From NCBI RefSeq assembly GCF_003991155.1, contig NZ_CP031293.1: a DNA stretch of 64,000 nt. One strand, written 5' to 3'. Within the stretch, counting starts at the first letter, position 1, and each line of letters opens with the position of its first letter. Made by a program: the position numbers. This DNA comes from Escherichia coli (GTDB lineage: Bacteria; Pseudomonadota; Gammaproteobacteria; Enterobacterales; Enterobacteriaceae). Of the stretch, positions 48,001 through 51,000 are shown piece by piece.

Positions 48001-51000
48001 AAAGCGACGCAGGTCACCGTCGGTGATAATGCCCGCTAGCCCACCTTCTGCGTCTTCTACCATCACCATTCCCTGGCATCCGCTGGTGATACGTTGAATC
48101 ACGGTTTTAAATGACGCATCCAGCTGTACCGCAGGAACATCATGCAGCATGACATCAGCAACGCGGGTCAGCAGGCGACGACCTAATGAACCGCCCGGGT
48201 GATAGCGCGCAAAATCATTCGGCATAAATTTGCGTTGGTGGATCATGGCAATCGCCAGCGCATCGCCGATCGCCATCGTCAGCGTGGTAGACGTTGTTGG
48301 TGCAAGGTTATTCGGGCAGGTTTCATTCGCCATGTGGAGTTCCAGCACGGCATCAGCATTTTTCGCCAGCGTGGAATTTCCATTATTGGTCATGGCGATA
48401 ATTCGGTTGCCGAAATTTTTCAGTGAAGGAACTAGCTTGAGGATTTCATCCGTTTCACCGCTGGCAGAAATAAGGATCAGAAGATCGTAAGGCGTAATCA
48501 TGCCCAGATCGCCATGGAAAGCTTCTGCAGGATGAATAAAGAAACTAGGCGTACCCGTAGAGGCCAGCGTCGCTGACATTTTACGACCGACATGCCCTGA
48601 TTTACCCATTCCCGAAAGAATAACGTGCCCTTTACAGTTCATTATCAAATTAAGGACACGCTGGTACTGCCCGGAATCCAGTTGTTTAGACAAGTTTTGT
48701 AATGCTGCGCCTTGTTCTGCCAGAGTCTGGCGAACAGAGGTAATTAGATATGGATCGATAGTACTGCTCTGGTCATCAGGTAAATGTCTTTCAGACATAT
48801 CAGCTCCTTTGCACGGAAATAATGCCACAGTCACAACAAACCCGAACCCACTATAATTTATTTATGCTAAATCAATGGGTTGTAACAAAATTTTTAATGA
48901 ATATAAAACCATGGTCAGTCCATGCTTATATGCAGGACTTATCACCTTCTTATTAAGTCGCAATGTCTCATGGAGGTGCGAAGATGCTGCAATATTACAG
49001 GCGAGAAGGGGAACCAAATTTTGCCCACCTATTTAACACACCCCTACATTATGAACAAGGAATTTAGGATTTTTATCATTTATTAAAATGTTTCTCACTT
49101 GACTATTAAGACCAAAAACAATTTATCAATTGATTATTTCCTCGTAAAAAAAGAACGTATGACCATGTTATTAATAAATAAAACACGTAAATAATGGTGA
49201 TGTTGTTTTGTGATTAACTATTTAAAGCGGCATAATAAACAGGTTGACAATTTCTATGTAAAGAAGAGGAAAATAATAAAATTTTAGCGGTGACTATTGA
49301 ATGATATGATAGTTGTGATGTTGATTATTTCTGGTAATGAATGCGGAATTAAATCTGGCCGGATTGTATTTTTGCTATATCTGTTTTTCAGGAGATTATT
49401 ATTAAATAGAAAAATAACAGTGGTGATTATCTCCGGTTGAGCTGGAGTCACGTATGCCAGCGAGTGCTTTCTTCCGGGCCTTCCTTCACTTCAGATAAAG
49501 AGCCTATGGAAAAGAGGCAATCATCAGGCTCTTTTTGAGTCATATGCGCCGATAATCAACTGTCTTGAACGTAAAAATTATGGAGCAACATGATGCTACG
49601 ATTCATTTCACTCTTCGTTCTTTCTGAGCATTGCGTTCAGGATGGTCAGCAATTTACGCATACAGTCAACCAGCGCCACTTTTTTGGTTTTTCCGGCTGC
49701 TGACAGATGCATGTAAAATGCCTTTATCACCGGATTAAACCAGGTTACCACAAGCGCTGCCATGTGCAGGGCTGCTCTTGCCTCCGTACGCGCACTGGCG
49801 TCGTTCGGCCAGCAGATATGTGTGGGATTACAGGGATGTTATGTGAACTGAACTGTGTTTTGTTAACGGGGGATGTTTATTGATGATTCGGGAGTGTTTA
49901 AGACCTGATGGCGTTATGCTCCCAAGTTTATTTTATATAAAGATCCAAAAGCAAAAACCCGCCTTGTGGGCGGGTTCTTTAGAATAGTGGTGCCGGACTC
50001 GGAATCGAAGAATGCTTCTATCATGTTGATATTAGTTTATTTTGTTTGGTTTGGTGAAATATGTACCCTCTTTTGTACCCGCAGTCCCTTTTGATATCGA
50101 AAGGGAATCAAACTCGGGGTCAGGCTGAGAGCACAGAAGGAAAGTGCCTGGCTATTATATCGTTAATTCTGTCAATCAGCTCCAGCCTTTTGAAAGTGAT
50201 GTGTGCAGATCCCTTCTTAAAGTATTTAATGATGAACATCTCATCTTCATAGCGTCCTTTACCCTGAACGGACTGTATGTGGTCATCCAGATTAATGGTG
50301 ATATTCCCTCGGTTGTCGGGGATCGGTTTACCGCTGAGCAGATGCAACATTCTTTCCAGGTCAGCCAGGCGATCTGCCTGCATTCCACTGATAAGATGAA
50401 ATCCCCACTGGTCCCATCTCACCAGATTGTTGACGATAATTTTACTGCCAAATTTACAGGGTGAGTTGGTTTTGTAATCCCAGCTCAGCCCTTTGAAGAC
50501 GTTGATCACTCCCCGTTCAAACACTTCATCTTTGTTCTGGTGCAGTTGTTCAAATGTGCTCAGAATGTTCGCTTCGCTGATTTCCGGAAAATTATCATAT
50601 TCCAGTGACCTGGACCTGACTGAGGTGGAGCAGATAACGTCCGTATTCTCGTTGACCACTTCCGGACGGGAGACTGTGATTTCAGACATAATCGATATTC
50701 CTTTTTGCAGATAAATGAAAACGCCAGCCGTGTTCAGGCTGGCGTCAGTGGAATGAAGTCTGGTGAGTGAGATGATGAGTGAGACTCACCGGTTCTGGTG
50801 CTGAAGCTGCAGTTGGCGCAGGGTACGGATATCCTCTCTGGCCTGTTCGATACAGGGCAACAGTGCTGCTGAATCCGTTTTATCCTCATTGTTGTCAAAG
50901 ATAATTCCCGATTCGCAGTCGATATTGTCCTGCAGCCACGCAATCAGAATATCCAGTGCGGTTTCCGTGGTTAATGATTTCATGTTGTTCCTGGTTACCA

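Follow-up and report, generated by a model that had tools for sequence, protein, structure and literature searches.

What occupies the DNA between the capsule gene kpsF and the pathogenicity-island junction in this Escherichia coli genome, and does the hairpin found there shield capsule transcription from the island? Within the window, i.e., the whole stretch of 64,000 nucleotides that was analyzed (contig NZ_CP031293.1, assembly GCF_003991155.1), positions 48799-49607 had been read as an AT-rich, non-coding region carrying the thermoregulated kps region 1 promoter and a hairpin-T-tract structure that could terminate transcription coming from the island side. Our analysis argues that 48799-49607 is very probably the known PR1 region of the group 2 capsule (kps) cluster together with old insertion relics, the hairpin most likely being incidental.

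The proposed identity of the region as the H-NS/IHF-controlled region 1 promoter was supported by the landmarks published for strain UTI89 (Jia et al. 2017, PMC5738388). The PR1-2 oligonucleotide TGGTTTTATATTCATTAAAAA(+1), which is the exact reverse complement of 48891-48911, the IHF site TTACAACCCATTG, and both EMSA primers are found unaltered in the window, and the PR1-1 oligonucleotide GAGTGTTAAATAGGTGGGCA(+1) agrees in 19 of 20 positions with the reverse complement of 49022-49041. The one base that differs from the published UTI89 sequence lies at -18 (GTGTGTT in the window, GAGTGTT in the oligonucleotide), and nothing else material separates the two. The numbering is self-consistent (+1 at 49022, +132 at 48891, and the T at -13 at 49035), and the T-to-C change at -13 published as a PR1-1 knockout (PMC5738388) maps to 49035. 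The region stands immediately 5' of kpsF in the group 2 capsule cluster, with the PR1-1 start and its -10 TTAAAT ~225 bp upstream of the gene (224 to 225 nt from 49022 to the kpsF ATG at 48798, which is itself just preceded by AGGAG), internal PR1-2 (+132) and PR1-3 (+181) starts, and an IHF site at +140. Compared with published PR1, this is the same locus with near-identical sequence, all three starts, the -10 elements, the IHF site, and a leader of ~224 nt. The kps PR1 region is a well-characterized virulence-gene promoter, and the copy in the window is a standard, already known one.

The +181 start (48842) is placed 7 to 9 nt downstream of TATAGT at 48851-48856, which is likely the -10 element of PR1-3. 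The H-NS/SlyA footprints, whose coordinates come from PMC8960920, would fall on the window in AT-rich DNA of 28% GC, and a motif scan placed TTGATAAATT at 49120-49129, one mismatch off the H-NS high-affinity motif. The same type of scan found the IHF consensus WATCAANNNNTTR on the plus strand at 48870 and a second IHF-consensus match at 49124, within the H-NS/SlyA footprint stretch 49101-49246. All features are collected in Table 1.

Table 1. Features of the kpsF-pheV interval, with window coordinates, strand, and basis of assignment
Feature	Coordinates	Strand	Basis
kpsF, arabinose-5-phosphate isomerase, first gene of kps region 1	47815-48798	-	ORF; PGAP KpsF/GutQ CDS, 984 nt
PR1 5' untranslated region, +1 to ~+224	48799-49022	-	+1 set by PR1-1 oligonucleotide
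PR1-3, +181 at 48842	48842-48856	-	published position mapped onto the window
IHF site TTACAACCCATTG, centered at +140	48873-48885	-	exact match to the site mutated in UTI89IHF
PR1-2, +132 at 48891; -10 TATATT at 48900-48905	48891-48911	-	oligonucleotide match
H-NS site III (+1 to +32)	48991-49022		coordinates from PMC8960920
PR1-1, +1 at 49022; -10 TTAAAT at 49031-49036	49022-49036	-	oligonucleotide match
H-NS/SlyA site II (-121 to -79)	49101-49143		published footprint (PMC8960920) mapped by position
H-NS/SlyA site I (-224 to -134)	49156-49246		published footprint (PMC8960920) mapped by position
AT-rich upstream extension of the kps module, -225 to -409	49247-49431	.	conserved in E. whittamii and E1V33
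Orphan junction segment, 121 bp, 50% GC, holding the hairpin	49432-49552	.	comparative sequence
Hairpin: arms AGAGCCT 49499-49505 and AGGCTCT 49526-49532; T5 49532-49536	49497-49536	+	sequence, folding
3' remnant of an IS110-family element, 244 bp	49553-49796	-	tblastn, DNA homology, PGAP pseudogene
Native pheV intrinsic terminator	49953-49979	-	terminator scan, folding, discriminant
22-nt 3' end of tRNA-Phe (pheV), attR-like direct repeat bounding the pheV pathogenicity island	49988-50009	-	tRNA-Phe match ends at 50009

In the published model, three tandem sigma-70 promoters, mapped here by sequence match, would start transcription of kpsFEDUCS. Firing at 49022, PR1-1 would produce a leader of ~224 nt, PR1-2 (48891) would rely on PR1-1 via transcription-coupled supercoiling, and PR1-3 (48842) would act independently. 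Binding of H-NS to the AT-rich stretches 49101-49246 and 48991-49022 would silence PR1-1 at 20°C, SlyA would remodel the H-NS complex at 37°C, and IHF bound at 48873-48885 would turn off PR1-2 and PR1-3 at entry into stationary phase. Downstream of PR1 lie kpsF, kpsE, kpsD, kdsB (kpsU), kpsC, and kpsS, and further on kpsT/M and the gsp genes; a gene neighborhood with an identical junction shows this order (kpsFEDUCS, then kpsTM and gsp), and in the genomes inspected the PGAP KpsF/GutQ CDS directly adjoins the matched region. Region 2 of this kps cluster is of neither the K1 nor the K5 type.

How far the promoter module extends was indicated by comparison among genomes. The 809-bp stretch is present at 97 to 100% identity upstream of kpsF in 1,554 of 5,426 complete genomes, including K1 strains, the K5 strain Nissle 1917, and BL21, and the comparison with K1 and K5 region 1 called for by the original prediction gave 98 to 99.8% identity for the K1 strains and Nissle 1917. 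Outside the species, homology to Escherichia whittamii (83.5%) and Escherichia sp. E1V33 (73.6%) spans 48799-49431 and then stops sharply, identity to these sister species running at ~0.7 to 0.8 up to 49430 and at ~0.3 past it; the block from -51 to +38 around PR1-1 is 97 to 100% identical to that of E. whittamii. This end of homology coincides with a step in GC content from 28 to 50%. On comparative sequence, the functional kps module ends at 49431 (-409). Its most upstream part (49247-49431) has no regulator reported in the PR1 literature surveyed, and IS elements insert repeatedly within it at 49352-49359. Among KpsF loci from 80 species, the upstream DNA showed no detectable similarity outside Escherichia (Pantoea, Rahnella, Phytobacter, Citrobacter, Aeromonas, Marinomonas, and others).

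Hence, 48799-49607 is a mosaic of PR1 (48799-49431), a 121-bp segment (49432-49552), and the tip of an IS110 element (49553-49607), and not a uniform AT-rich promoter. The AT-richness first attributed to the whole region applies to 48799-49431 (38% GC in 48799-49022 and 28% in 49023-49431) and fails for the segment that holds the hairpin (50% GC in 49432-49552). Moving outward from 49431, the 121-bp orphan comes first and the 244-bp 3' remnant of IS110 second; a further orphan then leads to the pheV terminator and, last, to the attR repeat. The 121-bp orphan is found only beside E. coli kps, as a single copy in one place in each of ~1,680 genomes, and is at least 99% identical in 1,250 of 1,678 of them. 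It has no recognizable origin, with no Rfam or Pfam match, it is missing from the E. whittamii and E1V33 loci and from the IS110 copies, and no second copy of either orphan segment occurs in the 64-kb window or the compared loci.

The claim that no plausible gene lies between kpsF and the IS remnant agrees with the annotation, since PGAP places no protein-coding gene there in the genomes inspected, and for the 1,554 genomes carrying the stretch the feature recorded is "none" in most rows. ORFs of 31 to 55 aa do exist on both strands, among them a hydrophobic 47-aa ORF on the plus strand (49297-49440) and ORFs of 31 to 33 aa overlapping the hairpin, and one of them might be imagined to be a small protein gene. 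There is next to no chance of this: by inspection, these ORFs are not preceded by a Shine-Dalgarno sequence, no PGAP annotation covers them in any genome inspected, and the three that were searched (31, 33, and 47 aa) gave no Pfam match. Moreover, indels of 3 nt and 11 nt interrupt the 47-aa frame in E. whittamii and E1V33, where it diverges after ~20 residues, and the ORFs over the hairpin sit in the segment that these loci lack. A toxin-like 47-aa peptide, or any of the other small ORFs, was thus rejected as not conserved in sister species, without Pfam match, and unannotated.

The outer limit of the non-coding region needs correction. It had been drawn up to 49607, which stands as far as ~49552 and fails for the last ~55 bp; IS110-derived DNA extends down to ~49553, so these last base pairs are IS remnant. 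The remnant, labeled by PGAP as an "IS110 family transposase" pseudogene, consists of residues 251 to 322 of a 322-aa transposase with two in-frame stops and ~25 bp of 3' non-coding end, and lacks the first three quarters of the transposase as well as the 5' end, which in the IS110 group encodes the bridge RNAs. A tblastn search with the Klebsiella pneumoniae pLVPK IS110 transposase gave 75% identity over 49796..49581, and degenerate codons for the last 10 transposase residues, with in-frame stops, are readable at 49581-49610; the Transposase_20 match is weak (E = 0.025). Relative to intact IS110 (the closest copy inspected being that of pLVPK, with a 322-aa transposase), the remnant shows 85 to 89% DNA identity, with the C-terminal 72 residues at 75%, and is only an inactive 3' stub interrupted by in-frame stops; the hairpin lies beyond it.

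Elements of the IS110 family rely on structured guide RNAs, and their targets are often repeated sites that form hairpins. With the right arm only 20 bp from the IS110 end (49532 versus 49553), the hairpin could be taken to belong to IS110, either as a bridge-RNA/seekRNA-like non-coding end or as a conserved insertion target. Both forms of this reading are extremely unlikely. In chromosomal IS110 copies and in more than 1,000 on plasmids, DNA homology runs out at 49552-49557, whereas the right arm of the hairpin ends at 49532, so the hairpin is not inside the boundaries common to other copies. In addition, the intact pLVPK transposase ORF ends ~25 bp before the IS end, leaving no room for a 3' guide RNA, and a 3' bridge RNA or seekRNA was rejected on these two grounds. 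The target-site form was rejected because the flanks of other IS110 copies (L004 and pLVPK) hold no shared sequence or similar hairpin. A literature search for kpsF and IS110 returned nothing relevant.

The inverted repeat with its T run is nevertheless real and lies where the original prediction put it (~49498-49537). It resembles an intrinsic terminator in that the repeat contains some G-C pairs and has an A run on one side and a T run on the other, but departs from one in its loop of 20 nt rather than 3 to 8 and in a short U tract that is partly used by the stem and faces away from kpsF. The stem comprises 7 bp, with 4 G-C among the 7 core pairs, and stretches to 9 bp with A-T pairs, and the loop may narrow to 13 nt with three extra weak pairs; this is not the G+C-rich stem with a short loop of an intrinsic terminator. 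In contexts of 51 to 56 nt, the fold reaches -12.6 kcal/mol (z -2.0) on the plus strand and, on the minus strand, -13.9 kcal/mol (z -2.75, a stability that none of 200 shuffles equaled); with 121 nt of context, the minimum-free-energy structure no longer contains it. When the region was dinucleotide-shuffled 500 times, a comparable hairpin (perfect 7-bp repeat, loop of at most 25, T-rich tail) arose in 39% of the shuffles. A consensus terminator scan did not call it, and a strand-specific search qualified it on the plus strand alone. The discriminant, a d'Aubenton-Carafa type hairpin/tail score with the pheV terminator as positive control, was negative in six registers on both strands (-21 to -51 on the plus strand, -35 to -70 on the minus strand). 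No U-rich tract immediately follows the stem on the strand to be terminated: the island-to-kpsF (minus) strand continues as UUUAUCUG, and the plus-strand tail is UUUUUGAG, 1 to 3 of whose U residues are paired in the stem. No Rfam 15 family was found in 48799-49607 (E ≤ 1 over 48000-51000), the only hits being two sub-threshold chance matches at 49900-50016, in the surroundings of the pheV terminator, and no tRNA or tmRNA was found in the region.

Altogether, these data and the natural variation of the hairpin bear on the readings that would give it a function. The idea that it is a functional intrinsic terminator shielding PR1 from island or IS read-through draws on the position of an inverted repeat flanked by an A run and a T run between the IS110 remnant and PR1, and on the stable minus-strand fold (-13.9 kcal/mol, z -2.75). 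With the T run (T5) on the plus strand, however, the hairpin faces away from kpsF and is wrongly oriented to stop transcripts from the island, which are minus strand and for which the tail is UUUAUCUG; the 20-nt loop and this tail account for the strongly negative discriminant (-35 to -70), and in that direction a canonical terminator, that of pheV, already precedes the hairpin. Moreover, the hairpin is absent from the E. whittamii and E1V33 loci, and a natural 12-nt deletion removes its 5' arm in 41 of 1,677 kps-positive genomes, among them the uropathogenic strain F11 and FDAARGOS_1262. We thus consider island shielding, as originally proposed, very unlikely. Slightly more could be said for a weak plus-strand (outward-facing) or bidirectional terminator of divergent or spurious transcripts from H-NS-bound DNA, sparing the IS110 remnant and pheV antisense transcription. 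AT-rich H-NS targets hold many spurious promoters, the T5 run does follow the stem on the plus strand, and promoter-like plus-strand sites are present (TTGTGA-17-CATAAT at 49208-49236 and another at 49052-49079). Yet, such sites are no more numerous than in shuffled sequence (5 versus 5.0), the plus-strand discriminant is -21 to -51, the tail shrinks to 2 U residues if the A-U pairs of the hairpin form, and there is no sister-species counterpart and no Rfam family, the 12-nt natural deletion being tolerated; this reading too is unlikely.

It is likewise quite unlikely that the 121-bp orphan with its hairpin is a relic 3' end or weak bidirectional terminator from a donor genome that would now serve as a boundary element and restrain divergent transcription, or the spread of supercoiling, where the IS110/pheV side meets PR1 silenced by H-NS. 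Relative to PR1-1, the hairpin occupies -477 to -510, outside the conserved module ending at -409. Among the aligned E. coli alleles without the deletion, its arms do not vary, but the whole 121-bp segment is at least 99% identical in most genomes, so that arm invariance or covariation within E. coli is uninformative; in one locus (L086), an IS3 element interrupts the 5' arm. Most likely, the hairpin plays no part in regulating the capsule and is an inverted repeat that is either incidental or a relic.

If insulation from the island side is required, the pheV terminator, 430 bp from the hairpin, would supply it. This strong terminator, oriented correctly for that purpose, has an 11-bp stem with 6 G-C pairs, a 5-nt loop, and the tail UUUUUGCUUUUGG, folds at -18.8 kcal/mol (z -4.14, unmatched by any of 200 shuffles), and scores +4.6 on the discriminant; in K-12 and other genomes, this sequence likewise comes directly after tRNA-Phe. 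ARAGORN found no complete tRNA at the neighboring pheV repeat, which corresponds to the 22-bp pheV direct repeats described in PMC10272209. As in the PAI-V type junction of ExPEC lineages (PMC10272209), the pheV repeat and terminator stand between the island genes (DUF4942, CbtA/YeeU) and kps, with no difference noted; the junction is context for the region described here.

Past annotation hygiene, the finding has little significance. The published PR1 landmarks are now placed at base resolution on the window, and the end of the kps module at -409 offers a rational 5' limit for reporter constructs. The full-length PR1 reporters pJJ1, pJJ2, and pJJ7 have their 5' end at -646, i.e., 49668 (PMC5738388). 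Current reporters therefore include IS110 debris, and since all three carry the hairpin, its contribution was never separated out in the PR1 literature surveyed. PR1-1 is more repressed on the chromosome than when plasmid-borne, through an unexplained cis or topological cause (Jia et al., PMC5738388); if the boundary-element reading were true, it could add to this extra chromosomal repression. The natural 12-nt deletion allele could provide a ready-made test of any distal role of the hairpin.

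Judged from its sequence, the 809-bp stretch at 48799-49607, between kpsF and an IS110 remnant, is the already known promoter PR1 of kps region 1. The published PR1 map can be placed on the window through short sequences given by Jia et al. (2017, PMC5738388). The PR1-1 oligonucleotide GAGTGTTAAATAGGTGGGCA(+1), aligned to the reverse complement of 49022-49041, agrees at 19/20 bases, which sets the +1 and the -10 element as tabulated and places the -13 T-to-C change, the published PR1-1 knockout, at 49035. The PR1-2 oligonucleotide TGGTTTTATATTCATTAAAAA(+1) is an exact match at 48891-48911, so that +132 lands on 48891, in agreement with its expected position. 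Both EMSA primers of the same study match exactly, as does the IHF site TTACAACCCATTG, which was also recovered by an IHF consensus scan. H-NS sites were transferred onto the window from the footprint coordinates in a review (PMC8960920); within site II, a motif scan found TTGATAAATT (49120-49129), which differs from the high-affinity H-NS motif at one position. Footprint II also holds TATCAATTGATTA (at 49124), a second match to the IHF consensus, and the block around both (49120-49136) is highly conserved in two sister species. The fit of oligonucleotides, IHF site and mapped footprints argues that the original prediction of a thermoregulated, H-NS/IHF-controlled region 1 promoter was correct, and the comparison with K1 and K5 promoters agrees, the same DNA being carried by K1 strains (APEC O2:K1, 99.8%), K5 Nissle 1917 and even BL21.

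Features of the kpsF-pheV interval (window coordinates)
Feature	Position	Strand	Basis or remark
kpsF	ATG at 48798	minus	AGGAG precedes ATG
PR1-3	+181 at 48842	minus	mapped position, just downstream of TATAGT
IHF site	48873-48885		exact match to published site
H-NS site III	48991-49022		mapped from PMC8960920
PR1-1	+1 at 49022; -10 TTAAAT 49031-49036	minus	oligonucleotide match
H-NS site II	49101-49143		mapped from PMC8960920
H-NS site I	49156-49246		mapped from PMC8960920
Orphan segment, 121 bp	49432-49552		between kps module end and IS110 boundary; contains hairpin
Hairpin	arms AGAGCCT 49499-49505, AGGCTCT 49526-49532		loop 20 nt; TTTTT 49532-49536 on plus strand
IS110 remnant	49553-49796	minus	homology boundary and tblastn with pLVPK transposase
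pheV native terminator and tRNA-Phe end	49941-50009	minus	
pheV terminator	49979..49953	minus	-18.8 kcal/mol, z -4.14, 0/200 shuffles as good
tRNA-Phe (pheV) 3' end, 22 nt	49988-50009	minus	

Region 2 of this kps cluster (36345-40357, plus strand) is short and neither K1 nor K5: it holds a 339-aa ORF at the galE position, a 760-aa hypothetical protein and a 209-aa CatB-like O-acetyltransferase, named after the annotation of Combat2C1, whose junction sequence is 100% identical. The Combat2C1 annotation marks galE as frameshifted; in the window this ORF is intact.

Of 5,426 complete E. coli genomes, 1,554 carry the 809-bp stretch (97-100% identity), almost always as a single copy. The expectation that no plausible ORF lies upstream of kpsF was borne out: only short ORFs (31-55 aa, either strand) occur, a small ORF as hidden feature was rejected, and none of the records inspected has a PGAP protein-coding gene between kpsF and the pseudogene labelled "IS110 family transposase".

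The stretch is a mosaic, in which the conserved kps module ends before the IS110 remnant. When KpsF loci from 80 species were compared, upstream DNA was shared by only two, at 83.5% identity in E. whittamii and 73.6% in Escherichia sp. E1V33. Similarity to either begins at the kpsF ATG and breaks off abruptly at 49431, identity in 30-nt windows falling from ~0.7-1.0 up to 49430 to ~0.3 beyond. This sharp end at 49431/49432 corresponds to -409 relative to the PR1-1 start (~2367 and ~2379 in sister loci L008 and L005), and coincides with a GC step from 28% (49023-49431) to 50% (49432-49552); the predicted AT-richness is only partly borne out. In the sister species, IS110 is absent and the module abuts 111-aa, 163-aa and 175-aa ORFs rather than pheV or IS110, the last resembling, by eye, a type VI secretion sheath protein. 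These different neighbours imply a different chromosomal site for kps.

Beyond the module lies the orphan segment, single-copy and seen only beside E. coli kps (~1,680 genomes); it is unannotated and matches nothing in Rfam or Pfam. A repeat element was rejected, no second copy occurring in the window or among the loci retrieved up to that stage. The whole junction (49400-49945) also matches a 29-kb Klebsiella oxytoca plasmid (NZ_LR890315.1, 16503-17048) at 98.7% identity; either a fragment of the kps flank sits on a Klebsiella plasmid or the contig is misassigned. IS110 homology then starts at 49552-49557 in chromosomal copies and >1,000 plasmid copies, and residues 251-322 of the intact 322-aa transposase of the K. 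pneumoniae plasmid pLVPK align by tblastn to 49796..49581 (75% identity, two in-frame stops). Hence, the remnant exceeds the annotated 183-nt pseudogene, and the limits first proposed for the non-coding region stand except for the last ~55 bp, which belong to IS110. After ~150 bp without assignment (49797-49940) comes the pheV boundary, whose 22-nt tRNA end represents the attR-type repeat bounding the pheV pathogenicity island (PMC10272209); some genomes have an intact tRNA-Phe there, directly beside kps.

The hairpin and T-run of the original prediction are present in the orphan segment, but the proposal that they end transcription from the island side is not supported. Such transcription towards kpsF uses the minus strand, where UUUAUCUG comes after the stem; the T5 run lies 3' of the stem on the plus strand only, directed away from kpsF, and a strand-specific search (perfect 7-bp stem, loop of at most 25, 5 or more T in 8) accepted the site on that strand alone. 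A consensus terminator scan called the pheV terminator, which already stands between island and kps, and not the hairpin; a hairpin/tail discriminant of the d'Aubenton-Carafa type gave -21 to -70 over six registers on both strands, against +4.6 for the pheV terminator. Fold energies in 51-56-nt context were modest (plus strand -12.6 kcal/mol, z -2.0; minus strand -13.9 kcal/mol, z -2.75), the hairpin was not in the minimum-free-energy fold in 121-nt context, and when the 809 bp were dinucleotide-shuffled, 39% of the shuffles produced a comparable hairpin with T tail. A known RNA family was rejected after Rfam and tRNA tests, Rfam giving no match for the hairpin region. An IS110 guide RNA was rejected as well, IS110 homology beginning only at 49552-49557, and so was an IS target hairpin, the flanks of two other copies (L004, pLVPK) having no similar sequence or hairpin. 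The hairpin is best read as an inverted repeat of incidental or relic nature within junction debris.

Moreover, the hairpin is missing from both sister-species loci, and a 12-nt deletion (49498-49509) takes out its 5' arm (AAGAGCCTATGG) in 41 of 1,677 kps-positive complete E. coli genomes, including UPEC F11, BH100 and K-15KW01; kpsF is intact in the one such genome checked (L085). The deleted AAGAGCCTATGG is flanked by short GAAA/AAAG repeats. One further genome (L086) carries IS3 in the 5' arm (~49500). The arms are invariant in other E. coli genomes, which carries no information since the whole segment is at least 99% identical in most. Insertion of IS elements upstream of PR1 is recurrent, at 49352-49359, ~49500 and elsewhere in 48799-49607: ISEc10 lies at 49355-49359 in locus L003, the flanking alignments sharing 5 bp as expected of target duplication, an insertion reported in ST131 NCTC13441 (bioRxiv 10.1101/2020.05.22.110148); IS1B is present in NZ_HG994850.1; and the match breaks at 49352-49355 in many genomes.

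Standard PR1 reporters start at -646 (49668), and chromosomal PR1-1 shows extra repression without explanation (Jia et al. 2017, PMC5738388); given this 5' end, the hairpin lies inside all standard reporters, which do not resolve its own contribution. Under the published model, which we adopt here, region 1 would be driven by three tandem promoters, PR1-2 relying on PR1-1 via transcription-coupled supercoiling. H-NS would silence PR1-1 at 20 C, SlyA would remodel the H-NS complex at 37 C, and IHF at +140 would repress PR1-2 and PR1-3 in stationary phase.
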